A stretch of DNA of 64,000 bases from an uncultured Planctomycetales bacterium (GCA_964354795.1 CAYHBB010000040.1:76593-140592), one strand, 5' to 3'; positions 42,001 to 64,000 are shown, numbered from the stretch's first letter. Program-made: numbers and translations. The notes: generated by a model not told the origin, from the sequence alone.

Positions 42001-45000
42001 AAACTCATGCGCCAGGCGCGCCTGGAGTTCCAAAGGATCGGCATATTCATCTGCTTTTGTCAATATAATGACCTCTTTTTTATCCGGATGGATTACTGCC
42101 CTGATCTGGGTGCCCAGGTAAAGAGTCTCTGCGTCTACGCTCATCCCCTGCCCGCCACGGACAGAGACCTGATAAATCGCATAACCTTCGATCGCCTTTT
42201 TAACAAAAGCTTCCTCTATATTGATACGCTGTGACTTTAAGGCACTAACCAGGGACGATACTGTCTGGTCTATCAATTCTCTGCCGGTTTCCTCCCTCCG
42301 GTAAACGCCGCAAAGCGTAAACAGCCGCCTTACTTCCTGCGCGCTTAATTCTTTATCCGCGCAGGATAGATCCTTACTATCAACGCTAGCGGAAGACTCC
42401 AGTTTAGATGTTTCCCCCGTATTGCCGTGATCCAGGTTGAACATTTGGGCTACCGCAGGAAGATAATCTTTCTCAAGCGTAGAGCGTATGCGGGCTTCGT
42501 CTTTCTCCAGTATCTTTATATAACGGTAAGCGCTTAAGTCGTCGCTCCTGTTTTTCACATGGTGCATTACGGCTTGCGTATAAGCCTGGATATCAGGCTT
42601 GGCAATATCAATGCCCATATTCATTATTTTATTTCTTGTGGCAAGCGAGACAAGATTAAAATAGGGATCGGATACGATCAATCTCTGAAGAGAAAGCATA
42701 GCCATGGCCCAGGCGACGATCTCTTCCTGTACCCTGCTTTTAAGAAGCGCCTTTTCGTCATGCCTTACGGGATCAGCAGGGTGCATAGCAGCAAAATCCT
42801 GAAAGATAGCGCGCGCCCACATGTGGCCGATGATCTCATGAATGATATCGAATTCCTTTATCTCCTCTTTTATTACCCACCCGGCGTCTCTTTTCTCCAA
42901 AGCGCTCTTATCAATGAAAAGATAGACTTTGCCTTCATCCGAAGTGAATAATTTCGCCTTAAAGCGCGGATATACGCTTCCTAATTGGGCAGAAGTATCC
43001 ACAGCCAGGATTTCCGGCAAAGGAACTTCATCAACAGACTCAGCTAAAACACCCAAACAGCTTCTGACGTAGCCTGTCAGGCTTAATGTATCAACCGGTT
43101 CGCTGAAGAAAGTATTATTCAGCAATTGCCTGTCAAGCCTGGCTCGCTGAAACGGCGATAACGCACAAGCCTTAGCGGCCTTTGCCTCATGGCGCTCGGG
43201 ATGGCTGTTCACCATCTTGATAAAACTAAGGATCCCAAATTTAAGGGTTGTGATCTTTTTCTCATAAACCACGGGATCGTGCTCTATCTTTTCGTGCAAG
43301 GGGCCCTGCAAGTATTCCGATGGCAGAATAATCGAATGAGCATTCTTTCGGGGCGCAGAACAGTGCAGGATACTTTCCGCTGTAATAGAAGTAACAGGGA
43401 TGCCGTAAACACCGTTAGCCAGATGACTGAAACAGGCATCCTGAGCAAGGACTGTAGTGGCTATACCTAAAATATTATGTATGTAAGGCTGGATCCCCTC
43501 TTTTTTGGGCACAAGGATCTGGCTTTGGGCAGCCGTGTTCTTATTACGCATCTCATTCCGGGCTCCCTCTACAACTTTTTGCAAATAATCATTGCAGGCT
43601 TCTGCCTGCCTTCCCCAGCCGCAGGTAAACACAAGATAAGCGCCTTTTATATCGCGCGCAAGCGCGATAATCACACCCATCCATTCTTCGGGTTCTAGTA
43701 AGCTGCGCTTGGATATATCGGCCGCATATAAGTTTATGATGACCACTTTTTTCGTAGGGTCAAAAGCTCCTAATGAGCCACCACTATTGCATTCGTCAAA
43801 TAATCTCTTCATCCAATCCAGGGCGATGATCGACTCTTCGATGCCGTATTGTATTGCGGGCATATTTTCTACGGTTACATCCAGGCCCAGGATACCGTAA
43901 GTCTCAATAGGAAGAAGCCAGATGCCAGTTGGCTTCAGCAGCCATTCAGACGCCACATCATTACTGATCCCGGATTTACTGGCGACTTTCCCGATCAGCT
44001 CTTCCATCCCCGATACATTATAAAGACAGCCTTCGCGGTCTAAAAATGTCGGATGATAATACCCGTAGATAGCGGGGCTCATCAGGCCAGGGTTCAAAGA
44101 CGAAATATTCGACAGCGGAGCGAACAGCCTGACGACATAAGGAGATTTTCTATTGATTGAATTGCCGGATCCCGCAAGCCAATTAAAATTTCCTTCCCCT
44201 CTGCCGATATCTATAATGTCGATCACCATATCGATCTCATGATCAAGTAAGACGGTTTTTAACTCTACGTCAAAAGGCTTATTGTCCTTTTTGCATTGCT
44301 CCCTTATTTCTCGCGACGAAGGTATCAGCTGGATCTTACCGGTAAATTGCCTGGCTATGAAAATATCCGGCAGGTCTGAGGCCAGATATATAGTGGCATC
44401 CGGAAACTTCTTCATCAATCCGGTCACCAGCGGCCAGAGAGTGATAGTCTCCTCTTCGAGATCAGATATGATCAGCGTCTTAAAGTCAGCAAAAACAAGA
44501 ATCTTCTTGATTTCTTCAGAAGGGATCTGCGCAAGCGGCTTGCTGATTGTCTTTTTCTCCCCTTCGTTGCTAGATGCCTGTATCAGAGCGCCCAGCAAAC
44601 CAAAAACAAGCAAAGATGCAGGATGAACCAATCCCGCGATAACCGCCCCTAAAGCAAAAACCGCAAGGATTATCTGCAAGGTGCGGGTCGATGAAGAATC
44701 TTGCGCGCTGCGTGCTTTTTGTTCGGCCGCTGCGGAGGCCTTATTTGAAGCCCCGCTGGAAAGCGACTTTTGCTCCCCACCAGCCACGGAAGGTAGAGCT
44801 AGGTCATTGTTATCCTTTCCAGCGGAGCAAGGCAAATCTATACAATCCCCATCCCTTTGCTCGCTTTCGCTCGCAAGGGACGCCTTCGCCCCTTCCGGGG
44901 CTCGGCAGCCAGCCACGGAAGGTAGAAGATCGCCTTTTTCAATTCTTTGCAACGGGGCATGACAAGTCTTTACGGGCCCCATCCTTTCAGATACATTCAT

Positions 45001-51000: not shown

Positions 51001-54000
51001 CCCCCTTGCCACATTATCGATTTGATCAAGAAACCGGATAGAAGCGACGACTCTTTCATAGCGGTTCCTGACTCTTCCTTTCTCGTCTTTTGTCTCGGGG
51101 ACATCCTTGAGCTCATCCATAAAAAGCATTTCCTGCAGCCTTTGCCAAAGAAGCGAGATGCTCGGTTGCCGGATCTCAAATTCATCCCAGAGCCTGATAA
51201 AGTTCTCGCGCTCTACCTCTGTTATACTTGCGGTCGAACTTCTCAGGGCAACAAGCAACTTATCATCACGGACACTATTGCAAAGGATAGGATTGATTTC
51301 AAGAAGATACACTATCGCGTAAGAATAATTCCTGATAGCAAAAGTATATTTAAACTTATTTTCCGTTCCTGAGGAGAAGTAGGTGTCGCCCAGAGCCACG
51401 AACAGATCCGCGATCCTGCTGCGAATATCCTTTGGCCCGTATTCAAACCCCCCAAGGCATCCCAGGCGCCTCAGATATTCAACGGTTAAGGATACCTCCT
51501 TGCCTATCAAATTAGGCGTCTTGTCTATCGACATCCTCATGTCTGTGTATTCCCGCAGGAATGAAAGGTGGTCTCTGGCGATTCTAGAGGGCAATGTGGC
51601 CGTATTACTAAGAAGTGATTCCATCCTTTCATCACGAAAAATATACCGCATCTCGGAAATCAAAAGAAAGGCTTTGTGCACAAACTCATCACCATGATTA
51701 TCTTTAGACACCCCATTGCAATGCCGGCCTGATTTCTCCAGCCACAAAGCCAGGACCTGATGATAAATCTGCGATTCTATGATCAGCTCTTCCGCTTCGC
51801 TATAGTCGCCCTTATCTTTCCACAGGCAGCTATTCAGCAATAGCACTGCCTCACCCGCGCTTGCATCCGACCTGCAAGCGCTGAGAGCGGACGCATTTAC
51901 CTTAAACTCTAATCTCCATTTTGTTCCCGAAACGAAAAACTCTTTAACCAAGGGATTATTGCTAATGATCCTATCCAATATTTTCTTTATCGGAGCTGAC
52001 GCGATCTCGCTCATTGAGGCGTACGTCTTCGGCAAATCATCCCCAGACTGACCCTTAGGCAAAACCCTCCAGAAAGAATTATGCAAATTTCTTTCCACTT
52101 CTGCAGCGGGCCTTCCGTTTTCCGAATGGTCGGCTGCTGAAACGGCTGGAACAAGATATCTTGTATCGAGCGGCGGCTGGAATACCTGCGTATCAGCATC
52201 TTTCTGCGTGAAAGCCTGGAGAATCTCTTTTGCCCTGCTTTTTATCGAACTATAGAATTCCCCGCTAATAAACTGCGCATGCCGGGGATTCCTGTCTCCG
52301 TTATAATTTGCTAACCCTTCAGCGTAATCTACGCAGTCAGCCAGGTTTATCCCTCCGGCATACCCCTTATTCTTTGCCTCGGTACCGGAAGGCCTTATCT
52401 CGACCCATTTATCGCTGAAGGCCAAATAAGTACCATCGCCGACAAAAAGGATGTTCTCTAAGTTGCTAAAATTAAGCTCGCTAAACGCTTCCTGCAGAAT
52501 TGCCCGGGCGTCTTCAATGCCTATCATGCCAGCCCGCAACGCAAGGGTAATGCTTAAAAAATAAGTGTCATTTTTCGTCCTAATCCCTAGCCCCTCCCTT
52601 ATTTCGTCATCAAGCTTTTTCGAATCTTTCTCATTAGGATTATAATAGATAACGTCCGCTCGGTAATCAAACCTGGAAGTTATCCGGTTATCCTCATAGA
52701 TCTCTTCCAGATAATCGGAAAGCATTTTGTTGCGGCTTTCTGAGTATGCGGCGAGCGCTGCAGTGACAATCATGGCTTCTCCCGCAGACTTCTCTCTCAT
52801 AGCGATGGCGGACCTTCCATTGGTGCTCCTGATCAATTCCGCAGGCCCGAAGATCTCACCGCCGGATTCTTCGCCCGCAAAAAGCGCGCGCGGATTCTTT
52901 CCTATATTGATATTGTTTCCGTAAATATCGGTAATAATGACGTCCTCGCCTGGGCGCGTCCTGAGCTGAAATTCCGCCTTTCGCAATATCGAGGCAATTT
53001 CTTTGAAACCCACCGGAACCTCTACTACCGCAACCCCGTTCTTTTGCGCCCACTCAAGCCAGGTCCTGGAAGAAGGAGTGGTCTTTACCATAAACCAGTT
53101 GTATTTATTCCACAGGCCCGCATCTTCTAATGCTTTCTTTTGATAGGCAATAGTCAGCAAAAACGACTGGTTCGGCGTATATACAGCCAACACCCTGGAA
53201 TTGCCCATATCAATATATGCTATCCCTAAACGCTGCAAAGAAGCAATATTCTCGCTGGATTCGATTTGCGCGGTAACCAGCCTATCGCCGTCCGGGTCAG
53301 TCATCAACACCGTTGTTCCTACGGGGTAATCTTTGAGTAATTCGCTGTAGCCGGTCATTTGTACCACCGGCATGATCACCTGCTGTGTCTTTTTATCAAA
53401 TTTAGTCATCGCCAGATCGCACGACAAATCATAGAATTCGCGGTTTCCGTTCTTAGGGTTAGTATCAAGCTTGCCGACTCCGTGGAAGAAGGAATCTTCG
53501 GCAGTATGCAGCCACCTTATTTTATGGTCGATGCCCAGATGTCTGAATATTCCGGACATTGTCCGGTACATGCATCCGCCGACGCAATCGATGACTACGG
53601 GATCCCTCATCCCCTTTATCTTTTCGAGGTTTGCCGCAGTAGCAACGCCTCTTCTTAAATATTCGACGTAAAGCTGCATACCGTCTTCAAGCCGGGATAA
53701 TAGCCCGGTGTCGATCAGTGGATTATCTTTGGCCGCGATGGCGACCGTATAACTACCCTGCTCTTCGATTACCTTGAATATCCTCTCGATCTCCGCAACG
53801 AACTCCATGGATTCTTCGGGCAGGTACTGGCTGCCCTGATTATTTATGTCCTTGGTAGCGATAAAGGTGGCGATGGCGTGGCTGGCAGTTACGTATTCAG
53901 CGCCGATGAAATCAAGCATGAATGCCAGGAATGAGATCATCCAGATCGGCATGGTCTGATATCCTGCTACAGTATGTGTAGTTATGCCTTCATGCGCTTG

Positions 54001-57000
54001 TATTCTGGAAATCAATTCTACAAACGCGAGGGAATTATATCTTACTTCTGAAGCGGCTATCTTATGCAGTTCTACTGCGCTATATTTATTATTGGCGACC
54101 CTGGCCTTGGCCAAAGTAGCCAGGAGGATCGCGAAAAGATGCAAGGGGTATTGCGGGCGGGTGTCCTGCGGATAGACAATATTCTGGTTTCCGCGGATGC
54201 CGGCAGTAGATTTCTCCGCCTCATCCTTGTATTTCGTTAACCATCTTTTTAAGCCCAATCCTTCAGGATTATTCTTCTCATCAAAATCAGATAAATGCGC
54301 TTTGGTTAACGTAACCTTAAACTCACCGGGATTTGATAAATCTATCCGGGAATTATTCTTTACGTGCGCGGGAGTCCTCTCTTCTATGTCGAGCAACAAC
54401 TCCCGCTCTAAAGCGCGGGCCCTTTCATTATCAGAGCGGCCCGATACCACAACCATGCCCAACAGGCCAAGAAGGATAAATGATGTGGGATGAACCAATG
54501 CAGCTAAAGCAGCAATACTGAAGAAGAAAATAATGGGTAAGACAGAACGCAATACGAGAGCTGAAGGAGCATTAGTTTCAAGCCAGAATAAAACTCCGTT
54601 AGTAGAAACCGACAGGTCTTCATTAAAACGGTAGCTGTATACTTTGCCGGAGGTGTGCACTTGGATCGCGCGCGGTTTAGTAAGGCGTATATTTACGTTT
54701 ACAATATCGTTATCAGACAGGCCGAATCTTTCTTTGGCATCCTGCGTTACCAAGACTTTTAACCTTTCAATGCGCTTTTCATATTCCGTGATAAGACGGT
54801 CGATTGCAGCGTCATGTAATTTAGAAGTGACTCTGCCGGAGAATGTCGAATTATTATTTCCTTTAGCAGTCTCGTGCCAGACCGTTTCATATAAGCGCAT
54901 CCATGTTTTACTGAATCCAGCAGCCTTATTCGGCGCCGTATTCTTCAAGGCAAAGACCGCTGCTACTAAGAATAAGGCGACCGCCCCCATTACGATCAAT
55001 AGTTTATTGCTGATCTTCCCCGACGTTTTGGTTTGCCGGTTGTCAGCCGCCGAATCCCTGGCAAAAGAAACATCTCCCTTTTGATAAAGCATATAGGCGC
55101 CTTCGGTCAACTCATTATCTTTTAATTTCTCGGGCGAGGTATTGGTCTTAACCAGGCGCAAATAATCAAGGAAGCCCTTACTTGGCAAAGTCACATCCTG
55201 CATGTAAAGGTATCCGCCCTCTCTTGTGCAAGAAAAGATATTGCCGTAATACTTATCCGCGGATCCGTCCCTGGCGAGCTTCCCTCCCAGGCCGGGGAAT
55301 TTCACGATAGTAAGGTCGCTTGCTCCTTTTAAGAAATCAAGCGGCTGGGTGCAATCTTTACGATGGAAATGCACAGTGACTTTTCTCGCAAATAATCCGG
55401 ATCTATACCTAATCTCGACTTCTATTATATCTAGGGTAGGATATTTGTAGGTGAAAGAGTAATTGAAACTGTCGCCGGTGAAATTGGGGATATGGTTATG
55501 GAAGAACCCGGTAATAGTTTCCATTGAATACTGGTCTTCATTATCCACCAGATGCACATCTGTTACTGTCGGGATGTTCCTGATGATTTCATAAGGCAGG
55601 GAGTAGTCCCAGCCGCAGGCAAGATAAAGGATGGTTTTTACTTCGCCGTCCGGTATCAGCTTCCAGACAGCTTCCCGGGCGTTTGTTTTTTCCGGGCCTG
55701 CGCGGCTTTCCTTGCCGCGGCTCTCTGCAAATCTCCTGAACGCGCTAACAGCGCTGGCAATAATTCTGCGCAGGCCCCGGTAGAAATCTGCATCAAAGAG
55801 CATGCCAGGGAAAGAGTAGAGCTTTGAGGATAAGGGATTGCCTTCAGAAGGTAAAACAAACCTCAGGCGGACCTTTACATGCGCGCCTTCCTTTAATAAA
55901 GCGATGATTTCCTTTGGAGCTAAATTTTGCTGCCAGGCACCCTCCACTAAAGAAGCCTCTAACACCACCGCTTCTGTGTCTTTCAGGTAGCTGACCACGG
56001 AACTAAGCAAGGCTACTGTAGGATGGCTGAAATTTATGCTTGAGACCTTGCCTCTTAGTTCACCTATCATCCATTTAAAAACTCTGCTGCCCAGCCCCTG
56101 CCTCCTTGCTACCCGGCCGTATCCTATGGCCCTTCCAAAAATAAGAAGGTCAAAACTTGCTTCCCCTTCTTTGGCTCTGGGCAATACCAGGTCCAAATGC
56201 CCCATTTCCTTATAGTTTTCGGCTCTATTCTCCTGGCCCCTATTTGTATTAAGGTAAATATAATCAAAATAATGCGATGCGTTGCTGTCGGCAATGTCGG
56301 CCATATGCCTGTGGAGCTCAAGCTCCCCCTCTATTGAACAGACAATACTTATTTCCAGACCTCTGACATCTACCTTGGCCGGCCCCAGCTTAAACATAGC
56401 TATGTGCTCTTTTTTCCCGGATATTTTTCCCATCTTCTGATAAAGATTCCGCGCGTAGTGATGGGGAACATTTAATTTTTCTCTGAATGAAGATTTTTCG
56501 TCTTCCCAGACCAACATATTTATGACTTCAGGATATTGAGTCTCCAACCCCCTGTCGCTTACCATAATGCTGGCTAAAAGATATATTTCAAAACCTGAAT
56601 ACCTATCGGACCTGATCTTCTTGACCCAAATCTTTACTTTTAGCTCCGTTGACTCGGATAGATCATCGGAGAGAGGCAAGCTGCTGATAATACCCACATA
56701 GTCGTAATGAAGGGCGCAGTTGCAGCTACATTGATTGCCGTTGCCACCGAGGCTATCTTCGATAGCCAGGTCCATTAATATGCTGACGATCAGCTCTTTC
56801 CTTTCAGGGCCGCTATGCGTGAAGAATCTGGCTATTTGCCGGCCTTTATCAAAGACAAAATTGCCCATCCAGGCTTTCAGCCAATTCTTAACTATATCTT
56901 TCTCGATCTCCTTGCCCGCGCCTTTTAAATATCCGATCAATTCTTCATTGCCCATGATCCTTTCATTGCCCATTTTTATCGCTTCAAATTTATCGCGCAG

Positions 57001-60000
57001 CTCCTTGAGTGAACCGGTCAATTCCTCAACAGATACCCTTGTCTCTTGAGGAAGGTGTAAAACGTTACCAGGATGCTGCTCAAAAAAGACGATCATATCT
57101 GCGATATTTGCCAAGGCTTTGGCGGCATTCTGCACAAAAATAGGGTTTCCTCCGCGAGAAGCATTGACCACTATTTCAACTTGATTTGCCAACAAAGGCA
57201 TGATTTCTTTAATTGATCTAATGCCCCCGCTTATCTGGCTGTTAATGTTGCCTACTACATCCTCGTTTATCTGGCCGCTCATTTCCTTAAGGCAAGGGTC
57301 TCTTACTTTCTCAAACAGCTCCGCGATCTTCTCGTCTGTTTCCATGACATCAAAATCTGGATTATTTACCGCCATCCCCAATAGGCCTAACATAAGTAGC
57401 GATACAGGCTGGACAAAGACAGCTTGCCCTTCGGCAAGACTCAGGGCAAGCATGGCTCCGACGGCCAACATAAACACCCACTTTGAAAGCGCTTTCCTGA
57501 GATTTAAAAATAAAAGGCTACGGTAAGATCCGGGAGGAAGCGAATAGCAGCTCTCCTCCCAAGTCTTATTGGTAGATAAGATCGCGCTTATCAATAAGTA
57601 TTGACTTGACCTTGGCCATGAGGATATCCTTGAGTTCCTGGCTGGCCCGTAGCCAGACGCCGTCTGCGGTTTTCCCCCTGACTGTTCCGTCGGGCTCGAC
57701 AAGGAAACAAAATTCAGACCACCAGAGAGGATGTTTAACAAATACGAAGAGATTTTTTGTATCAGGCAAGATGCGGATGATTTCCAATTCCTGTAAATTG
57801 ACCATTTTGTTACCTCCTTATTATTTTTGGCCGCTGCCAAGGATTTAAGTAAAGCCCCGTTGCAAAACGACAAATCTTCCCCACCAGCCACGGAAGGTAG
57901 AAGATTGCCTTTTTCAATTCTTTGCAACGGAGCATGACAAGTCTTTAGCGCCCTGATTAATAAAAATCCTAAACCCGGTGTAAATAATCCGTAGAATCCT
58001 GAATCGCTCCTTAATGCGGCCTTGGCCTGGCCCGGAGCAGAAAACAGGATGAAACATCCGATAAATGTAAGGTTCGAGATGGCCTGGCCGGTCAATAACC
58101 AACCGAAGAGAATAAAGCCTAAAGCGCATGCCCTGCTTATCCCCAATGTTATCCGCGTAGCCATATAACTGCCGAGATGCAGCTTAGAAACCAAAACGGC
58201 TCTCAGTATCCTTCCCCCGTCTGTAGGAAATACAGGAAGAAGGTTCAGGGCCGCTAAAATCAAATTAATGTAGGCAATGCTGCTTAAGATCTGTGCCCAG
58301 CTGCTGACCCCTATAGTAAAGGTAAGGCCCCCGGGCACAAGCCAGAAACTGAGCGCGAACAATAACGGCGCCAGTAAGATATTCACCAATGGACCGGCAA
58401 ACGCGATGCTCATCTGCTCCCTGGGAGTGCGGCCAACCCCCTGCATGCGGGCGAATCCGCCGATGATCGTCAAGAGGACATCGTTGGTCCTGATATGGTA
58501 TTTGCGCGCCTTCAAGATATGCCCAAACTCATGCAAAGTCACTAAGCTGAATATGGCAGCGTAAAGAACCAGTCCCGGCAATCCCCATGCGTTAATCGCA
58601 AGGAACAGGCCCAGATAAAGGCTCCAGTGCGCTCTTACGGGGACTCCTTTTACGGTAAAGAGGGTGATATTCAATCTATCAAGAACACCATTCAAATTTC
58701 CATTCAGGGAAGCTGACAGCAGCGGAATCGGTAATCCTAGACAGGCAAAAGCAGCGCCCGAACAATCGCTCCTTAAACCTTCCAATAAATTCTTAAAGGC
58801 GCTTTCTTCGATATTACTCTTACCCATATCGTGCTCTATGTCTTCAGCAGTGGCCCGTTCATATTTTTCCCTGTTATCAGCCAGAGCAAACCCGTCCAGC
58901 TCATGGGTCCCCAGGACAGGGGAAAGCCTGTATTCCTGCGTCCTTATCACCGTAGGCCAGATATAAATGAAATCCCCCAGCATGGAAACTGAATGTTCAA
59001 TATTTTGAGATTGAAGCGCGGATACGCACTTCATAAAGGCGGATTTGAATCTTTCCGTGCCATCTGCCTTCATGCAGATCACAGATAAAGGATAATCAGT
59101 GAGTACATATACCTCGGCTCCCTGAGCCTCGAAGGCGGCTTTTCTGGCAGCGCTTTCCACGGGCAGAGAACAATCATAATAATTTGCCTGTATGTGCAGA
59201 TGGAAGACAGAAGCTAATTTCCCGGGATTTATGCCCAATTTTAATCTTGGGGAGCGGGATAATCTCCTTATTGCCAGCATTGTCTCAAGGGCCGCCTCGC
59301 TGACCTGCTGCGGAAATTCTTTTTCGGGCTCAGGAACGATTACAATGTGGTACTTAAAGGAAGCATTCTTATTGATATCTACAGCGATATGCCTTGCGTC
59401 TATCACTAAATCCAGGAGCCTCCTTACAGGGCCCTCTTCCTTCAGGAATTTATTAAAATTCTTATTGGGATCGAACTTTAAAACATCAATGTTAGAGCTG
59501 CTCTTTCCGGTATTGCGCGCCTTCTTCGCATTATCGTAATCTGCGCGTCCGGAATTGAACCTCATCATCCACCTGCCTACTTCCCTGGTCTCGGTAATGT
59601 AAGGGTCATACGCGAATACCCCGGGCTGATGCGCCCTTATATCCCAAAGCTCCTGAACCGTAGTATCAAAATCTAATACTCCCTCCACAATCAGCCTTCC
59701 CAGTATCCAGCTCGCCTGCCCTTGAGAAATTTCATCGATAGCCCTGATAAATTCCTTCTGCCAATCGCTCACTCTTTGCTCGGATTCACGAAAGACCATA
59801 TCCTGGTAAAGATTCAGGATTATCTGGGTCTTTAATTCCTCGCTCAGGACGCTGTTCTTTCTCAAGACTTCTTTGACCTGCGCTGCCTTGACTGCTTCTG
59901 AGGCCTCGCTAGGTTGCGCGCGATTGTCATTGAAACCATCAGGATTATTATTGTGCCACTCCCAGGCGCTTCTGATTATGTCTTTAATCCCCATTGTCGG

Positions 60001-63000
60001 GGTGATACCGAGCTCTTGCGTAGCTTTCGTGTGACTAATAACCAGCCTGTCAACTTCTCCCTCGGGTTTTCCTTCAATGATGATCTTTTGGGCGATATCG
60101 GGGCAGGACTGCGAAGCAATCTCGATCACCGCCTGCTGAATTTCCTTTATGCTGAATCCTGTGCCGCTTCCGAAGGCAAAGGTATCAGACCGGCCAGTTT
60201 CACATAAGCGCTCAAATGAAGCCGCGAACAAGCGCGCGACATCACCGACAAAAACAAAATCGCGGATAGGCGTGCCGTCTTTGGTAGCGGCCATTACACG
60301 CCGCCTTATCAGGGGATTCGCCTTAAGCTCAGGCTCGCTATAGATATGCCAATCGACATTGTTTCTTTTACCTAAAGCGACAAGGAGCAATCTGGGGATT
60401 ATATGGGTTTCGGGATCATGGTCTTCGCCGATATTCAAGCTTCCGCCTGCCACATTGGCATAGCGTAAAGTCACGTATTGTATGCCTTTTTGCCTGCTGT
60501 ATTCCTCTAGTACCTTTTCTACAAGGACTTTTGTCCTGTTGTAGGGATCTGAAGGTGAAACTTGTGAATGCTCATCAAAGGCTTCGTTTTCACTTAAGTT
60601 CGAGTCTCCATAAACAGCTCCGCTGGAGGCCTGGACGATATATTTGATCCCGTGCCTGGCCATGGCCTCAAGCAGCCTGATCTCATTGATCACATTGTTG
60701 TAATAATAATCCAGCGGCCTCTTTAATGATTCATAGCCCATGGTGTTGGCGGCAAGATTGAATACGGCGCATGGTTTATATTTCGCGATCACCTCTTCTA
60801 ACCTGGCAGTATCCGCTAAATCTCCCTCCTCGAATATCGCCTTGCTTTGCACGGCGGCTTTCTGGTGCCCCTTACGCAGATTATCAAAGACCACAACGCG
60901 ATAACCGCGGCTTATTAATTCCCTGATCACAAAACTCCCCACGTATCCTGCGCCGCCGACAACGAGCACAACGGCCTCGGGCTTATTTCTATTTTTAGTA
61001 AACTCTTGCATAAAAGCGCTGATCCTCTCGGCTACTATTTTTTGCGTTGCTTCGTCCTTGGCATAAATCCTCTTATAAAAGTCCTGGAACTCCCGGGAGA
61101 AGACAATTGGAATCCACCATTCCGGATGCTGGGTGTACCAAGAAACCACTTCCTGAACGCCATCTTTTAAGGAAATAACCGGCTGCCATCCTAATTTAGT
61201 GCGTATCTTGCTGTCATCCACAGGATACCAGGGGTCATGCCCGGGCCTGGGAGGAATAGCATAAATATACTCATCAAGGTCCTTTCTTTTGTTGGCAACG
61301 CCCATGGCTTGCAAAATCTGGTAGACCATCCAGAGATTACGTTTCTGATTTCTTCCCGCTATATTGTAAATTCCTCCGGGTTCTCCCCGATGGAGCACGG
61401 CGTCGATCGCCCGGGACATATCCCAAACAGAAAGCCAGTCTCTCTTACCCTCGCCCTTATTAAAGAGAGGGATCTTTAATCCCAGCATCTTATGGATGAT
61501 CGTAAAGGGCAGGAGTTTCTCCGGATATTGATAAGGGCCATAGTTGTTAGTCCCGCGGATCATCTTTGCCCCGAGGTTCCAGGCGTGGTTGAATACCTGG
61601 ACCATAAGGTCTGCTCCGGCCTTGGAAACGCCATAGGGGTTGCCGGGAGCAAATTTTGTATTTTCTTTGAAGCGCCTGCGCTGCTCCAGCCTCGCCCCGC
61701 CATAAACCTCATCGGTGGAAATGTGCAGCATCACCACTTCATTGCGGCCGGATTCTTTACGCGCCTTATTCTCATCACGCACTGTTTCCAGCATATTCAA
61801 TGTCCCGCCTACATTGCTGTCCACGAATGGCATCGCGCTATAATTTGACCTATCCACGTGGCTTTCTGCGGCAAAGTTGACTACAGCATCCACTCTTCTT
61901 ATCAGCGCCTGCACACATTCTCTGTCCCTTACATCCCCCTTCACGACTTCAAGCCTGGGGCCCAAATCCTTATCCCGCATGATATCCTCTAGGTTCTCCC
62001 ATCTGGCGGCATAGGTAAACTTATCCAGCACAATTACCCGGTAATTCGGGTGGACTGACAAGAAATAACGCACGAATACAGAACCGATGAATCCTGCTGC
62101 TCCGGTGACCAGAACCGTAGGCTTACCGCTGGTGTTGCCTATACAAAGATCGTCTTTGGGATGCCCGGGATTTTCCTTTACCGCACGGGGCACTGGATAG
62201 GCAGAGGCGAGACTAGAGATCCTCTGTTCATTGCTGGGAAGGCCCATATCTATCAGCATCGCGGTAAGGATTTCATTTATTAAAGAACGGGACAGGACCG
62301 GATCTGTGTCTATGCGGCTTTTTAATTCCTCCCACATCTCAATAGCCTCTTTTGATTGCGCTTGGACTTGAACATCCGCATAACCTTGCGGGTGGGTCTT
62401 ACGCCATAAATAGAAATGCCCAACCATATCCTGCAATCTATGGCGCGGCTTCCAACCAAGCAATTCAGTGGCCTTCCTGGGGGAGACCACGATTCTATCA
62501 ACGTCGAATCTTCTTTTTCCCTCAATAACGATGCGGCTGTCCACATCGCGATGTTCCGGCCTGGCAACTTCCCTGACCATAGATACTACTTCCTTAGCAG
62601 ATATGCCTTTTCCTGTCCCTAAATTGAAGGTGTCTGATCCTTTGCCATCCTCTAAATATCCCAAAGCCGCAAGATAAGCAGCCACGGCATCCTCTACATG
62701 CACATACTCTCTTATGGCTGTGCCGTCAGGAGTATTTGCCAGGCAGCGGTCAGGGTCTTGGGCAGACCATAAGACTCTTCTGGCGGCATCTTCCGCTACA
62801 GAAATCAACGTCGGAATCAGGTTCGTAGGCTGCAAAGTGTCCTCTCCCATGGAGCCATCCGCTAATGCTCCGGCGATATTTGCGCAGCGTAAAATTACAA
62901 ACTTAAAACCACAGTTTTCAGCATAGCTGCGGATAATCTGCTCACCTAAGTATTTTGTCCTTGCGTAGGGGCTGACAGGAAACACCTCGCTCGTCTCGCT

Positions 63001-64000
63001 GAATTCCTCTCCTGCTGCCAGATGTGTTTCTCCGTATATGGCTACACTTGAGGCAAAGATAATATTTTTCGCCTTATAAGACCTCATTACTTCCAAGAGA
63101 TTAAGCGTAGCCTGTATATTGTGGTAATAATAGTCTAGGGGCCTTAAGAATGATTCGGGTATTACCTTAAGGGATGCCAGATGGAAGACTGTTTCCGGTT
63201 TATATTTGGCAAACACCGCTTCTAGCCTTGCTTGATCAGTAAGGTCCCCCTCCTCAAAGTCCACTCCCTCAGCTACTGCTTTTCTATGGCCGTTTATTAA
63301 ATTATCGTAGACTATGACTTTCCTGCCCTCGGCAAGCAATGCCTTAACCAATATGCTTCCCAGGTAACCCGCGCCTCCGGTGACAAGTACGGTAGAGCTT
63401 TTTGTTTTCACCAGCGCGCCGCGGCTATTGTCTTCGTTAGGAAATTCCAGCTCTCTTAAGCTTGCGCTGTCGGATACATTGTTACGAGCCATCTTACGAT
63501 GCCTGTGGACTAAAGACTGCATAAAGAAATCGGGATTATTTGCCAAGATCTTAAGCAATCTCTCTGTGGGGATCAATAATCTGCCAAGCTGCTCCCAATC
63601 ATCCGCACTGGCAGCAAGCGAGAATCTAAGCGGAACAAGCAACAGGATATCTTCCGCATTGCCTAACCGGCGATACATGGTGCTATCCGCTTTTATGACT
63701 TCAATCGCTTTTCCATTGTTCTGGCTTGCCACAGAAGAAAGGATCTTGTCGGTGATCGGGCTTCTGTAATGGCCCCAGTAAACTACTTTTTCTATTCCCG
63801 ACCTTACCGCAACTGTAGCGCAGACCGGACAGGTCTTCAAAAGTGTAAAGCAGTCGGCACCCTTAAGCTCTTTCTTACGGCCGTTGAATATAGCCTGCGC
63901 AACTGCCCGCTGTTCAGCGCATAAGGTATGTTTGTACGCACCCTTCAAATGGCGGCAGACATTATTTTCAAATTGCGCCGAGGACAATTCCGTGTTCACC
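1..64000 (-). CDS. Internal fragment of a single giant multidomain ORF, open at both window edges, at least 21,300 codons. Predicted membrane-tethered multi-enzyme polyprotein.
   Basis: Sixteen hand-reverse-complemented segments at 3, 8160, 17460, 21600, 33540, 45000, 57480, 57900, 58260, 58560, 59220, 59967, 60960, 61140, 62160 and 63492 are all in the frame whose codon first bases are divisible by 3, and each gives sensible protein motifs. No TTA, CTA or TCA in that register on the + strand lines I checked: 1-300, 30001-30060, 40021-40080, 50041-50100 and 57481-57900. Junctions between modules at 17281-17460 and 21361-21600 read through with no stop. The supplied ORF track lacks this ORF, so the track is filtered or incomplete. 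Confidence 0.72.
1750..2520 (-). other. HAD-superfamily (Cof/IIB-like) phosphatase module.
   Basis: VMIFDIDRTITDTTSV (revcomp of 2485-2520; DxDxT motif I) ...RIALITTQGIDE...LFIGDSFSAGALDADVISALP. Confidence 0.45.
2950..3110 (-). other. LysM (peptidoglycan-binding) module.
   Basis: DTIIVKEGDSLWNIWKN (revcomp of 3030-3060) ...ADPAVIHPGNILTIP. Confidence 0.5.
3900..4290 (-). other. REC receiver module.
   Basis: KKILFVDDQPMILRTF (revcomp of 4200-4230) ...IDLVITDFQMPGGKNGGELAKEVKAKNKNIPVILISGY. Confidence 0.55.
4350..5060 (-). other. CheB-type protein-glutamate methylesterase catalytic module.
   Basis: KVIVIGASRSGYEAIEEIIEGLPQDHPPVIINEHLRP... then DVICVVLSGLRSDGTAGAKEIAGNGGIVLVQH.... Confidence 0.5.
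5090..5290 (-). repeat. Hydrophobic two-helix (TM-hairpin-like) linker repeat, representative copy.
   Basis: Encodes EGQGPSTKLGVSLIALIGLVAVGALITFFIAPHWAAIKLALAGIGTSILATAGPIAALAILPILL. The + strand core is ...cagcccaa(g/t)(a/g)agcgcgatcaggc...ggcc.... Confidence 0.6.
7050..8150 (-). other. Uroporphyrinogen-decarboxylase (URO-D/MtaA-like) superfamily module.
   Basis: ITFDDMRNRAMWMPLISFGG... (revcomp of 8101-8160 confirmed) ...VIFHGCGDSTPFLSNMTGLNVDAYSIDEEVDL... Confidence 0.35.
8190..8300 (-). repeat. Hydrophobic linker repeat copy.
   Basis: SPASGQGMIALLEFVALGALAAFVAPNSLPLILGACMLGAVV. Confidence 0.5.
8550..9150 (-). other. Class I SAM-dependent methyltransferase module, HemK/PrmC-like with an NPPY-type motif.
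   Basis: GQRCLDLGTGSGILGLIMLSRGAGHVTFTDV (revcomp around 8900-8930) ...FNLIVFTPSP. Confidence 0.55.
9450..9860 (-). other. REC-like receiver module.
   Basis: IKILVIEHAEEDLELLVRQLRKIDPAFIIVSAHSAEEAIEIFKSGQGPFDIAITDLHMCTMDGDQLASEIKTIKPDTFVIL. Confidence 0.4.
9890..10040 (-). repeat. Hydrophobic linker repeat copy.
   Basis: RSGQGLIALLGLMAFGALTAFVIAPHWAAVKLAIAGAFMHHGPPIAALGLGLLFIAA. Confidence 0.55.
10650..11250 (-). other. HAD-superfamily hydrolase-like module.
   Basis: LRFVVFDIGNVVVYFDF (revcomp of 11210-11245) ...KVAFLSDTNHMHLAY...MLYFDDRQDFVVNAESCGI. Confidence 0.35.
11690..11780 (-). other. HExxH zinc-metallopeptidase-like motif in a module of unknown family.
   Basis: LADFVHEAYGHMLNEIKYG (revcomp around 11725-11750). 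A second such motif, IHEIIGHMWARA, sits at about 42820-42850. Confidence 0.3.
12700..13400 (-). repeat. Copy B of a duplicated coding module of about 650-700 nt. It is roughly 90% identical at protein level to 15500-16250.
   Basis: Out-of-frame shadow ORFs in the track are near-identical between 12934..13221 and 15733..16020, and between 12563..12826 and 15389..15613. In-frame translation repeats GLTQIEKDRLTGELFERIKVDPDFQWEYKFCDGSNLMIPARCDLTESDFDYRILPFADIFPQEGFIDGHPELSALVEFPP... Confidence 0.6.
13850..13990 (-). other. P-loop NTPase (Walker A) module.
   Basis: RPVVVLIKGKPGSGKTLIRNTLLDWL (revcomp of 13900-13925). Confidence 0.45.
14270..14600 (-). other. TPR-like repeats.
   Basis: LGLKYCEEERYHEAIPFFKDVLVSNPNIAAAHGNLGYIHYFLGNEKTAITHWAKAAILDD. 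Confidence 0.4.
14610..14770 (-). repeat. Hydrophobic linker repeat copy.
   Basis: GNSGQSLIALFGLVAIGALITFFIAPHWAAIKFALAGIGTSVLATITFFVLGG. Near-identical at nucleotide level to 5090-5290. Confidence 0.6.
15370..15500 (-). repeat. Hydrophobic linker repeat copy.
   Basis: SGQSLIGILGLVVLAFILAPILITGPIHASALGLGIFNLGA. Confidence 0.5.
15500..16250 (-). repeat. Copy A of the duplicated coding module, paired with 12700-13400.
   Basis: In-frame translation GLSQTEKDRLLSELFERIKANPDFQWGYKFCDGRNLMVLARCDLTESDFDYRILPFADIFPQKGFIDGHPELSALVEFPP..., nearly identical to the 12.7-13.4 kb module. Confidence 0.6.
16250..16360 (-). repeat. Hydrophobic linker repeat copy.
   Basis: SGFSLPLLLGLVALGALAVAGLMHPAGALGAVMVAA. 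Confidence 0.5.
17280..17400 (-). repeat. Hydrophobic linker repeat copy, hand-verified.
   Basis: Revcomp of 17281-17460 gives ...GDGSIFSDSGQSLIALLGLVALVFILASILIAGLIHAPSALALGI. No stop on either side. Confidence 0.65.
18150..18750 (-). other. Bacterial sugar transferase module, the polyprenyl-phosphate sugar-phosphate transferase catalytic domain of PglC/WbaP/WcaJ type.
   Basis: GPVFYTEERIGYKGRPFRIYKFRTL...LFDELPQVVNIIKGEMSLLGPRPL (revcomp of 18360-18405) is the hallmark motif of this family. Confidence 0.62.
19560..19690 (-). repeat. Hydrophobic linker repeat copy.
   Basis: LITLFVGLLALGVLAAIIGLLSHPATAGPFAALSAVPLLAA. Confidence 0.5.
20700..21350 (-). other. Gfo/Idh/MocA-family NAD(P)-dependent oxidoreductase module.
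   Basis: KVGVILIGAGRYALSAHLRAL (revcomp around 21195-21225) ...LLAVVDF... then IAVIVSTHPVSHKAYVSWALNAGYHVLVDKPLT. Confidence 0.5.
21400..21530 (-). repeat. Hydrophobic linker repeat copy, hand-verified.
   Basis: Revcomp of 21361-21600 gives ...LVSPQPNKKPTSGQGLIALLGLVVLVYILVPVLIAGLIHAPPAAAIVLPLALIGAIIQ. It is in frame with both flanking modules. Confidence 0.65.
25400..25815 (-). other. Response-regulator receiver (REC) module.
   Basis: KRLLLVDDEASILSGLKRLL (revcomp of 25782-25812) ...IITDLEMKFMDGLSFARTMRENGSKSYIVLQSGRG. Confidence 0.5.
26000..26330 (-). other. PAS sensor module.
   Basis: MINENGEIVWVNEAEVKFLGLNSAEDMAGRYVWEFVAPKCQEEV...FEREYQFADGSVRSVWITEQQVLNKKGRVIGIISSLHE is PAS-like. Confidence 0.45.
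26450..27250 (-). other. Glucosamine-6-phosphate deaminase / 6-phosphogluconolactonase (NagB/Pgl/DevB) family module.
   Basis: VNVIFPGGRTVNSY..., ADIIVVGVGSDGHIGLNSQG (revcomp around 26715-26750), ...KKVFLLALGKRKAKILKQALMESGTPVSMLL...TVIVDQGA. Confidence 0.5.
29450..30350 (-). other. Protein-kinase-like (eukaryotic-type Ser/Thr kinase fold) module, possibly degenerate.
   Basis: Catalytic-loop-like QYVHDQGILHRDFGPRNIWI (revcomp around 29895-29930) and a DFS in place of DFG (IIYDFSCAIL). Confidence 0.4.
32100..33650 (-). other. Superfamily-1 (Upf1/DNA2-like) helicase / P-loop NTPase module.
   Basis: Walker A LIQGPPGTGKTTTITDIV (revcomp of 33481-33540). Motif II IVLVGDHMQLPAF at about 33100-33130. 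A later QGQENKVVIVSMVRS...RINVSLSRAK C-terminal helicase motif. Confidence 0.6.
38000..38450 (-). other. Transglutaminase-like (TGc) cysteine-protease-like core module.
   Basis: KKAICATYARLFEVMARVCGLDAGTVPC...EYHHVANIVRLSDGTFALVDVTN (revcomp around 38235-38265). Cys, His and Asp core residues sit at the expected spacing. Confidence 0.5.
38850..39010 (-). other. Sigma-70 region 4 (4.2) helix-turn-helix module.
   Basis: LTAREEIVMRNYLGMSARLSDKELADELCVSEGRIKQLKAKAIRKLSHP (revcomp around 38880-38920) is a canonical sigma-70 region 4.2 pattern. Confidence 0.55.
43350..44500 (-). other. GT9-like (ADP-heptose:LPS heptosyltransferase family) glycosyltransferase module.
   Basis: ILVFADFKTLIISDLEEETITLWPLVTGLMKKFPDA... 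then VVIINLYAADISKRS...GAYLVFTCGWG... then LAQDACFSHLANGVYGIPVTSI (revcomp of 43413-43440). This matches the heptosyltransferase C-terminal motif shape. Confidence 0.4.
44570..44700 (-). repeat. Diverged hydrophobic linker copy.
   Basis: LQIILAVFALGAVIAGLVHPASLLVFGLLGALIQA. Confidence 0.45.
44800..44975 (-). repeat. Short LPSVAG-containing repeat units, about 61 nt each. There are two copies here and one more at 57885-57950.
   Basis: + strand gccacggaaggtagaagat(c/t)gcctttttcaattctttgcaacgg(g/a)gcatgacaagtcttta occurs at 44912-44972 and 57889-57949. In frame it encodes KTCHAPLQRIEKG(D/N)LLPSVAG. An extra LPSVAGG-encoding copy sits at about 44800-44830. Confidence 0.55.
49850..50350 (-). other. 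HD-domain metal-dependent phosphohydrolase-like module.
   Basis: LIALLHDIGEPSKSPHHAEAGAPIV...IFHHVDLG (revcomp around 50105-50130) shows the H...HD...H pattern. Confidence 0.4.
52150..54150 (-). other. Alpha-D-phosphohexomutase (phosphoglucomutase/phosphomannomutase) module.
   Basis: YVTASHAIA at about 53880, MTDPDGDRLV at about 53290 (the DxDGDR Mg site), and FAGEESGGEIFGP at about 52870 (the GEESGG sugar loop). Confidence 0.55.
57340..57480 (-). repeat. Diverged hydrophobic linker copy, hand-verified.
   Basis: Revcomp of 57421-57480 gives WVFMLAVGAMLALSLAEGQA... followed by VFVQPVSLLMLGLLGMAV. Confidence 0.5.
57566..57805 (-). CDS. 79-aa small ORF in an alternative frame, embedded inside the giant ORF. 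It is preceded by TAA TAA and a GGAGGT ribosome-binding site.
   Basis: ATG at 57805 with GGAGGT 7 nt upstream and two stop codons in this frame just before it. Translation is MVNLQELEIIRILPDTKNLFVFVKHPLWWSEFCFLVEPDGTVRGKTADGVWLRASQELKDILMAKVKSILIDKRDLIYQ, which looks protein-like. The giant-ORF frame stays open across it but encodes low-complexity S-rich sequence here. Confidence 0.4.
   Translation of the reverse strand: MVNLQELEIIRILPDTKNLFVFVKHPLWWSEFCFLVEPDGTVRGKTADGVWLRASQELKDILMAKVKSILIDKRDLIYQ
57885..57950 (-). repeat. LPSVAG-containing 61-nt repeat copy, located just after the M50 protease module.
   Basis: See 44800-44975. Revcomp of 57841-57900 gives LPSVAGGEDLSFCNGALLKSLAAAKNNKEV. 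Confidence 0.55.
58000..58720 (-). other. M50 (site-2 protease) family intramembrane zinc metalloprotease module.
   Basis: HEFGHILKARK (revcomp of 58501-58560) and LNLLPVFPTDGGRIL (revcomp of 58201-58260) match the HExxH plus LDG signature of S2P/M50 peptidases. There are hydrophobic helices between them. Confidence 0.6.
58900..59600 (-). other. HIT-superfamily, GalT/Apa2-like (HxHxQ) nucleotidyltransferase or phosphorylase-like module.
   Basis: KLASVFHLHIQANYYD (revcomp of 59161-59220) carries an HxHxQ motif of the galactose-1-phosphate uridylyltransferase branch of the HIT superfamily. It sits directly after the two epimerases and the dehydratase. Confidence 0.35.
59930..60990 (-). other. 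Second NAD-dependent sugar epimerase/dehydratase module, GalE/WbpP-like.
   Basis: VGGAGYVGSFVIRELISRGYRVVVFDNLRKGHQ (revcomp of 60901-60960), ...SPSDPYNRTKVLVEKVLEEY..., and it ends AWEWHNNNPDGF at about 59967. Confidence 0.55.
61080..62160 (-). other. rfbB: dTDP-glucose 4,6-dehydratase (RfbB)-like module.
   Basis: KPTVLVTGAAGFIGS (revcomp of 62101-62160), ISTDEVYG, NPYGVSKAGADLMV, and the C-terminus EVVSWYTQHPEWW (revcomp of 61081-61140). Same frame as the GalE-like module. Confidence 0.62.
62370..63492 (-). other. galE: UDP-glucose 4-epimerase (GalE)-like NAD-dependent epimerase module.
   Basis: Reads VLVTGGAGYLGS...YGETHLAAGEEFSE...SPYARTKYLGEQI... and ends ...LGWKPRHRLQDMVGHFYLWRKTHPQGYAD, which matches a GalE C-terminus. 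The reading frame stays open into the next module. Confidence 0.6.
63495..64000 (-). other. Cytidine/dCMP-deaminase-like zinc-binding module, partial. It continues upstream beyond the window and reads in frame into the GalE-like module.
   Basis: Minus-strand translation gives ...KHTLCAEQRAVAQAIFNGRKKELKGADCFTLLKTCPVCATVAVRSGIEKVVYW..., with CAE and CxxC zinc-ligand motifs. No stop before the MARNNVS start of the epimerase module. Confidence 0.4.

Follow-up and report, generated by a model that had tools for sequence, protein, structure and literature searches.

A sugar-nucleotide enzyme cassette in a stop-free reading frame of more than 21,333 codons, probably part of a giant gene of the Omnitrophota multi-enzyme type

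We describe a stretch of 64,000 nucleotides from an uncultured Planctomycetales bacterium (GCA_964354795.1, CAYHBB010000040.1:76593-140592; the whole stretch is called the window here), in which a string of nucleotide-sugar enzymes followed by a site-2 protease (S2P) core is encoded in one minus-strand frame that has no stop codon. The five enzyme modules are a 5.5-kb piece of an open reading frame (ORF) of more than 21,333 codons, and not a stand-alone five-module fusion protein. On the basis of sequence comparison we consider it probable (about 70%) that the region is a sugar-nucleotide cassette within a giant gene of a type known from Omnitrophota (class Gorgyraeia), multi-enzyme and membrane-tethered. 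The frame is most likely translated straight through, so that the enzymes would be carried as beads on one chain. New here are a conserved didomain of UDP-glucose 4-epimerase (GalE) and a phosphorylase-like module, the identity of this module, which is invisible to Pfam, and an S2P core in such a chain.

Results

The frame is open across the window

Stop codons were counted in each frame over the whole 64,000-base window. The minus-strand frame contains none in 21,333 codons, and the remaining five frames contain 583–1,565 each. All the modules listed in Table 1 lie in this frame, where amino acid n begins at plus-strand coordinate 63999-3(n-1). An ORF listing made with the bacterial code gives nothing longer than 310 amino acids anywhere in the window, because ORFs that run off both ends are omitted from it. 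The window opens in the middle of a deaminase module, whose N-terminal half falls beyond the window end; the chain therefore extends further upstream.

A first-pass annotation, made by a model from the sequence, had proposed (giving no strand) that GalE-like, RfbB, second-epimerase, HIT/GalT-like and M50-protease modules follow one another in a single frame at 58000-63492. The consecutive arrangement is borne out: there are no in-frame stops, and all the anchors share the minus-strand frame, namely HPQGYAD at the end of the first epimerase (62394), KPTVLVTGAAGFIGS at the start of RfbB (62124) and WYTQHPEWW at its end (61140). The two stretches picked out there for a stop check, 62130-62370 and 60990-61080, are likewise open. 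As the full extent of the frame the interval does not hold, since the open frame fills the window and runs off both its ends.

The four linkers between the modules, the last of them at 58648-58767 ahead of the M50 core, comprise 254 codons without a stop, against 16–19 expected at the off-frame stop density, and linkers and modules have the same order of GC content by codon position (GC1 > GC3 > GC2). The catalytic motifs are intact in all five modules. Reassignment of a stop codon was considered and rejected as unneeded, because the open frame lacks stops of any type and the other frames contain all three. A phage or viral origin was also rejected, being without support. There are no tRNA genes in the window.

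The GalE and RmlB modules and their linkers

A Pfam search of the window translation finds Epimerase (E 4e-163, three stretches) and GDP_Man_Dehyd (E 2.5e-149) within the first 2,000 residues, together with Peptidase_M50 (PF02163, E 1.6e-19). These are matches that the first-pass annotation had predicted; the GalT/HIT match that it also predicted was not obtained for this sequence.

The GalE-like call for the first module is confirmed by its TIGR01179 score, which exceeds the equivalog cutoff of 262.3 bits. The module aligns over its full length with PDB 2c20 (E 5e-68) and carries GGAGYLGS, YARTK and the catalytic Ser in FASSVAIYG. The second NAD-dependent epimerase of the string is also of GalE type. 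Its score falls just below the same cutoff, the query having been truncated at profile position 325; it has the motifs GGAGYVGS, ASSGAVYG and YNRTK, and both GalE modules align to 2c20. The two are paralogues (40% identity over 406 amino acids, E 1.7e-83). Their alignment passes the canonical GalE C-terminus by about 60 residues, to amino acids 595 and 1411 respectively, and this helical extension also aligns in P0001, a 1,230-residue Omnitrophota fusion of GalE to a kinase (GalE-APH).

The RfbB (RmlB) call for the module between them also stands. The TIGR01181 match runs end to end, 15 bits under the cutoff of 365.1, so strict equivalog status is not reached. All ten of the best PDB matches are dTDP-glucose 4,6-dehydratases, with 2hun at the top (E 4.9e-83). 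The module has the motifs GAAGFIGS, STDEVYG and YGVSK, and its T-D-E triad and YxxxK align to the corresponding motifs of 2hun (hiSTDEVYGg, nPYGVSKAg). We conclude that it probably works like RmlB. The linker proposed between GalE and RfbB is present, and is somewhat longer than the estimated 75 residues or so: it measures 83–89 residues, depending on where the boundaries are placed.

The HxHxQ module

The HxHxQ module proved difficult to place by direct searches. The segment alone has no match in Pfam (E up to 10), NCBIfam or the PDB sequences (phmmer). A word-indexed homologue search found nothing, and only two proteins when the family alignment was used as query. An AlphaFold prediction from the single sequence was unusable, with a predicted local distance difference test score (pLDDT) of 35. 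In a full HMMER search, 94 homologues were found among 1.84 billion representatives; they delimit a domain of about 310 amino acids. Some of these are free-standing proteins of about 320 amino acids, among them an insect protein (P0056) named GDP-D-glucose phosphorylase 1 (phmmer E 3.1e-7). Others lie inside proteins of 1,100–6,585 amino acids, of which several are named Omnitrophota (P0017 and P0020 included) and several fill their contig.

In an alignment of 30 homologues, H178 of FHLHIQ is invariant and H176 and L177 are nearly so; the window has F at the position before HLH where the homologues have a near-invariant N. The profile of these 30 sequences matches the yeast Ap4A phosphorylase Apa2 (4i5t, E 1.6e-5) and, weakly, HIT proteins. 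Pfam ATP_transf is matched by eight of the 30, and the GalT models of Pfam match neither the window segment (E up to 10) nor any of the 30. The AlphaFold2 model built from the 30-sequence alignment has a pLDDT of 91.7 and a predicted template modelling score of 0.90, and it presents a two-lobed HIT-like fold. In a Foldseek search Apa2 is the sole strong match (4i5t, 4i5v and 4i5w; E 1e-9 to 2.5e-8, probability 1.00, template modelling scores 0.58–0.69, about 320–330 aligned columns), with other HIT-fold proteins next.

In GDP-L-galactose phosphorylase, an enzyme of the HIT family, one histidine is missing, and phosphate is therefore used instead of water (PMC11066809). Family profile, fold match and this precedent agree, and the earlier HIT/GalT-like label is therefore right at the level of the superfamily; as an assignment to GalT proper it does not stand. 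The homologues and the predicted model suggest an NDP-hexose/dinucleotide phosphorylase-like module, more like GDP-D-glucose phosphorylase and Ap4A phosphorylase than GalT. Its putative activity would be phosphorolysis of, or nucleotidyl transfer on, an NDP-hexose, the support for this being the company that such modules keep: GalE, UDP-glucose pyrophosphorylase (UDPGP), starch synthase and phosphoglucomutase (PGM).

With GDPGP1, VTC2 and Apa2 the module shares an HxHxQ motif with one His of the triad exchanged for another residue, a feature that favours phosphorolysis (PMC11066809), the domain length of about 310 amino acids, sequence homology to the insect GDPGP1, and a full-length fold match to Apa2. 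It differs from them in sequence, being 12–13% identical to Apa2 and about 24–27% identical to GDPGP1-type proteins, and in its context, as a fusion partner downstream of GalE within a giant ORF. A covalent join between GalE and another enzyme of hexose or nucleotide-sugar interconversion is also known from yeast Gal10 (GalE and mutarotase, PDB 1z45), which is among the PDB matches of GalE module 1. Gal10 is a two-domain protein of 699 amino acids, whereas the GalE partner in the window is a HIT-type phosphorylase-like module and the pair is one bead among dozens. We note that Pfam PF26216 and PF26217 are attached as precomputed annotation to two of the homologues (P0043 and P0109) and were unreported by the Pfam scan of both proteins; newer Pfam models may already cover this domain.

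The S2P core and the membrane segments

In a Kyte–Doolittle hydropathy scan, the first 1,790 residues of the window are free of membrane segments, and the three peaks in this part correspond to Rossmann glycine loops. The first real hydrophobic segments are those of the S2P core. About 50 more follow, many of hairpin length (41–55 amino acids) and lying between modules of cytoplasmic type. Many of these hairpins have the common sequence SGQSLIALLGLV...LIAGLIHAP.

The whole S2P core aligns to the mjS2P structure of M. jannaschii (PDB 3b4r, E 6.4e-22, residues 12–208 of 224), and both zinc-binding motifs are present (HEFGH and NLLPVFPTDGG), in agreement with the earlier M50 (site-2) protease call. 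The putative protease looks active. It has the six-helix core with HExxH and NxxPxxxxDG that is typical of the minimal site-2 proteases (M. jannaschii MJ0392/3b4r; SpoIVFB). Unlike them it is not free-standing: in its chain about 1,790 residues of soluble enzymes come before it and about 19,000 residues after it. It has no PDZ or CBS domain.

As a separate observation, the transmembrane hairpin recurs at least six times between soluble modules, like a standard membrane staple, either as SGQ[SG]LIALLGLV..L..IL...LIAGLIHAP or as the variant LIAL.GLVA.GALITFFIAPHWAAIKLALAG.

Related loci

Related loci were sought by a pattern scan with a 4-sequence alignment, using one genome per species. This found three loci with an HxHxQ module, two of them from metagenome-assembled genomes (MAGs) of Omnitrophota. 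The closest, L003, is from Omnitrophota MAG LacPavin_0920_WC90_MAG_43_22 (contig JAPLLX010000004.1, 328 kb). All 20,966 nucleotides fetched from it are stop-free in one frame of 6,988 amino acids (2-20965), and the ORF extends beyond the fetched part. Its residues 2917–3655 are 53% identical to window residues 1009–1747 with only 4 of 741 columns gapped, and the alignment is unbroken through the linker between GalE and the phosphorylase-like module; GalE module 2 is itself 53% identical to the GalE of L003. The neighbours of the pair in L003 are UDPGP upstream, and starch synthase with GT1, ARMT1-like and CofD downstream. Kept in the L003 frame among different neighbours, GalE–linker–phosphorylase is thus conserved as a unit and is shuffled between giant ORFs.

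In the second Omnitrophota locus, L001, the HxHxQ module is followed by a PGM region in the next large ORF, an order that is also found in the window. This PGM region is 43–45% identical to window residues 3196–3982. Used as a homologue query, the whole 1,897-residue string found only multi-domain proteins of 1,000–1,600 amino acids that share SDR modules, and no giant relative. The corresponding scan of metagenome contigs found only ordinary GalE-type genes of about 314 amino acids, at 36–38% identity.

Two further observations concern the relatives. The surroundings of P0001 (L008, 1-13693; Omnitrophota MAG GCA_030649895.1, contig JAUSEX010000037.1) consist of a gene of 11,849 amino acids, an IS200-type (Y1_Tnp) transposase, and then genes of 347–1,233 amino acids on the same strand that include P0001. 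This arrangement looks like a giant ORF in pieces, or like pieces on the way to fusing, and suggests that fusion between adjacent genes lengthens such chains and fission breaks them up. In addition, other large HxHxQ proteins carry repeated peptides between their modules: GGVIGAMSERV occurs about seven times in P0026 and RASASG about six times in P0020, and SSP[VIL] is found in several of the large homologues (set: P0026, P0020, P0016, P0019, P0034 and P0037). These repeats may be junction or processing signals. All three were sought in the window and are absent from it.

Other features of the frame

About 25 distinct domain types are identified by Pfam in the stop-free frame. Beyond the sugar cassette there are about 20 further enzyme and signalling domains. 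The downstream PGM module is functionally linked to the sugar-nucleotide cassette. It is accompanied by an HD domain, a Glu/Leu-type dehydrogenase, sigma-70 region 4, a transglutaminase core, an AAA_11/AAA_12 helicase, a protein-kinase-like domain, glucosamine-6-phosphate isomerase, PAS, three response-regulator receivers, a GFO/IDH Rossmann domain, a bacterial sugar transferase (Bac_transf), YrbL, TPR, HAD, a methyltransferase, uroporphyrinogen decarboxylase, a CheB methylesterase and LysM. The highest copy numbers are three, for the response regulators and for the SDR modules. Modules that normally belong to unrelated systems thus stand in one frame: sigma-70 region 4, uroporphyrinogen decarboxylase, CheB followed by a receiver, the dehydrogenase, the helicase, the kinase-like domain and LysM.

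The frame also contains internal repeats. Just past the M50 core, a 64-nucleotide in-frame DNA segment encodes VKTCHAPLQRIEKGNLLPSVAG. A second copy, 13 kb away, is identical at 62 of 64 bases, with sharp boundaries and no chance matches expected. The copies encode VKTCHAPLQRIEKG[N/D]LLPSVAG and their flanks are unrelated; there is a partial third copy at 44780-44797. Gene conversion in the recent past, insertion of a small element and conservation of a signal are all candidate explanations for the repeat. Further along, a segment of 227 amino acids is duplicated (amino acids 15946-16172 and 16879-17105, 82% identity). The duplication is also visible in the DNA (12727-13026 and 15526-15825, 89% identity over 300 nucleotides), which points to a recent internal duplication within the giant ORF.

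Table 1. Features of the stop-free frame, with window coordinates and the matches that identify them
Feature	Amino acids	Coordinates	Strand	Evidence or remark
Stop-free ORF, 21,333 codons		1..63999	minus	Cut by both window ends; holds all modules
Cytidine/deoxycytidylate-deaminase zinc-binding module, C-terminal half	21-74	63778..63939	minus	Pfam dCMP_cyt_deam_1, E 3.8e-08, profile 48-100/102
GalE module 1, UDP-glucose 4-epimerase type	204-539	62383..63390	minus	TIGR01179, 281.7 bits, profile 2-331/332
Linker 1	540-627	62119..62382	minus	Starts with the helical C-terminal extension common to the GalE modules
dTDP-glucose 4,6-dehydratase type (RfbB/RmlB)	629-965	61105..62115	minus	TIGR01181, 349.9 bits, E 1.1e-104, profile 2-321/321
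Linker 2	966-1010	60970..61104	minus	No stops, no family match
GalE module 2	1011-1349	59953..60969	minus	TIGR01179, 249.2 bits (cutoff 262.3)
Linker 3	1350-1429	59713..59952	minus	Helical connector from GalE module 2 to the phosphorylase-like module, conserved in L003
HxHxQ module (motif FHLHIQ)	1430-1744	58768..59712	minus	GalT/Apa branch of the HIT superfamily
M50/S2P membrane core	1785-1990	58030..58647	minus	Pfam Peptidase_M50, E 1.5e-20, 74 bits (cutoff 27.2)
64-nucleotide in-frame DNA repeat		57884..57947; second copy 44909-44972	minus	Just past the M50 core
Hydrophobic hairpin	2170-2211	57367..57492	minus	Kyte–Doolittle scan; first of many hairpin-length inserts between soluble modules
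Phosphoglucomutase/phosphomannomutase	3318-3769	52693..54048	minus	Pfam PGM_PMM_III, E 2.5e-06; PGM_PMM_I, E 0.0015
Recurrent hairpins	~14160, 15536, 16168, 16415, 17992, 19581	~21400-21520, 17260-17390, 15350-15500, 14620-14760, 9950-10030, 5130-5260		

Discussion

Giant genes encoding up to 85,804 amino acids have been reported from Omnitrophota, and their cleavage by embedded peptidases has been proposed (West-Roberts et al., 2023, bioRxiv 10.1101/2023.11.21.568195); transcription as a single mRNA and proteomic detection of such proteins are cited in the same work (10.1101/2023.11.21.568195). A catalogue of 916 proteins of at least 10,000 amino acids defines a class of "multi-enzyme metabolic cluster" (Nielsen and Lui, 2026, bioRxiv 10.64898/2026.06.07.730766), whose content includes PGM, starch synthase, GT1, response regulators, HAD, HD, methyltransferase and HIT, with up to 147 transmembrane helices (10.64898/2026.06.07.730766). 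The window ORF has the length (at least 10,000 amino acids) and the domain mix by which Nielsen and Lui define the class, and provisionally the membrane content as well. Like the members from Gorgyraeia, it tiles many Pfam families of which none is dominant, sets sugar enzymes (PGM, epimerase, HIT) amid response regulators, HAD, HD and methyltransferase, and has dozens of putative membrane helices by the hydropathy scan, and its nearest relatives are Omnitrophota MAGs. It differs in that the window shows an internal 64-kb piece only. The hallmarks of the "Archaeovorin" and "Dockerin" types of 2023 (SecA-DEAD, C39 peptidase and dockerin) were not found: no SecA DEAD-like helicase, C39 peptidase, dockerin, glycosyl hydrolase or NUDIX domain is detected in the 21,333 residues (Pfam, E <= 0.01), of an ORF whose ends lie outside the window. 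The M50/S2P core and the GalE-RmlB-GalE-phosphorylase string are unmentioned in both papers on giant proteins ("M50" occurs 0 times). We do not open a new category, because the phenomenon has already been described for Omnitrophota, and for the same reason the fusion of these enzymes in one frame is less surprising than the first-pass annotation had it.

We propose the following model. The very long chain would staple cytoplasmic enzymes to the membrane. A soluble block of two GalE modules, RmlB and the HIT-type phosphorylase-like module would precede the membrane; the chain would enter the membrane through the six-helix S2P core and continue through hairpins to PGM and other modules of cytoplasmic type, with the S2P core serving as an anchor and possibly also as a processing protease. 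The GalE modules would interconvert UDP-hexose epimers (of UDP-Glc/UDP-Gal type), RmlB would commit dTDP-glucose to dTDP-4-keto-6-deoxyglucose and so toward deoxy-sugars, and the HIT-type module would release hexose-1-phosphate by splitting or exchanging a nucleotide sugar, a product that PGM would connect to glucose-6-phosphate. The predicted pathway would then run between hexose-1-phosphate and nucleotide sugars and on to an epimer or a deoxy-sugar, with glucose-6-phosphate reached via PGM. A phosphoglycosyl transferase (Bac_transf) would stand further along the same chain. The substrates and the role of the protease are putative. The enzyme modules probably face the cytoplasm, a side that we favour because the enzymes are NAD- or nucleotide-dependent and the number of S2P helices is even.

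We favour read-through translation because the frame is open over 64 kb, the modules have no starts of their own, internal Shine-Dalgarno signals are absent and the linker is conserved. It could be supposed instead that the modules are made separately, from internal initiation sites or internal promoters, and that the missing stops are incidental. The relatives give this some colour, since L001 has similar modules as three consecutive same-strand ORFs of 1,850 to more than 2,448 amino acids and the genes behind the 11,849-residue gene of L008 include the GalE-kinase fusion; in the window, in-frame Met codons occur 16–48 residues upstream of the module starts. However, a frame is kept clear of stops for 64 kb only under selection for read-through translation, none of the modules starts with its own Met, and their linkers are conserved at the protein level. 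No Shine-Dalgarno-like motif precedes an in-frame ATG anywhere in the window, none is found with any in-frame start codon in the first 2,300 residues, and start-like codons preceded by such a motif are not enriched in frame (14 of 1,131, against 16 of 1,381 in an off frame). We therefore regard separate synthesis as highly improbable. An origin of the open frame in misassembly, sequencing error or the decay of genes that have lost their stops is more improbable again, to the point of being barely credible. No identical sequence was found in the public collections searched, which counts in favour of an artefact, but errors break frames and do not create 21,333 stop-free codons. The catalytic motifs are moreover all intact, the matches are full length, composition by codon position is uniform over modules and linkers, and the independently assembled Omnitrophota MAG of L003 has the same didomain in a stop-free frame of its own.

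A more substantial question is whether the chain, once made, stays whole. It might be a polyprotein that is cut in or near the hairpins by the embedded S2P or by other proteases of the ORF, freeing the upstream sugar block. The S2P core is complete, with both its zinc-binding motifs; the many similar hairpins could be repeated intramembrane substrates; cleavage of giant proteins by embedded peptidases is the proposal of West-Roberts et al. (10.1101/2023.11.21.568195); and the inter-module peptides GGVIGAMSERV and RASASG of related large proteins resemble processing or junction signals. Against this, the window has no recurrent linker motif, and the S2P could not separate the five modules from each other, because there are no membrane segments between them. 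The linker between GalE and the phosphorylase-like module is conserved as continuous sequence, which suggests a stable didomain. We consider processing of this kind unlikely. A bolder version, which joins two proposals and which we rate as distinctly unlikely, is that GalE, the helical linker and the phosphorylase form a bifunctional Leloir-like shortcut from UDP-galactose-type sugars to hexose-1-phosphate, and that the S2P cuts its own chain at the hairpins, the whole being a polyprotein that replaces an operon.

Several points count against the assignment to a membrane-tethered giant gene of the Omnitrophota type. The window contains neither end of the ORF, so that its N-terminus, any signal peptide, its full length, the flanking genes and the overall topology are unseen, and the transmembrane segments were called by hydropathy and not by a trained predictor. 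Among the relatives scanned, only the junction between GalE module 2 and the phosphorylase-like module has the support of a second genome; the junctions GalE1-RfbB, RfbB-GalE2 and phosphorylase-M50 have none. The window DNA had no counterpart in genome, metagenome or viral contigs when these were scanned for exact 59-mers, and the taxonomic placement comes from the nearest relatives only, which are Omnitrophota MAGs at 34–53% identity (L003 51–53%, L001 42–45%, P0001 34%). The window has no marker gene or rRNA, and membership of Omnitrophota is for that reason not proven. Finally, the largest multi-enzyme giant of Nielsen and Lui is periplasm-facing in their interpretation (10.64898/2026.06.07.730766), which, if general, conflicts with a cytoplasmic location of the enzymes.

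Giant enzyme ORFs raise the question of how bacteria manage the translation, folding and insertion of chains that run to tens of thousands of residues, and of whether such ORFs are substitutes for operons, with a fixed stoichiometry, or chains that are later cut. The window is a clean example for these questions: its five enzymes can be recognised, their active sites are intact, no membrane segment comes between them, and the last of them is a complete intramembrane protease. The didomain of GalE and the HIT-type phosphorylase-like module, which a second giant ORF has conserved, is of a size that permits expression and assay.

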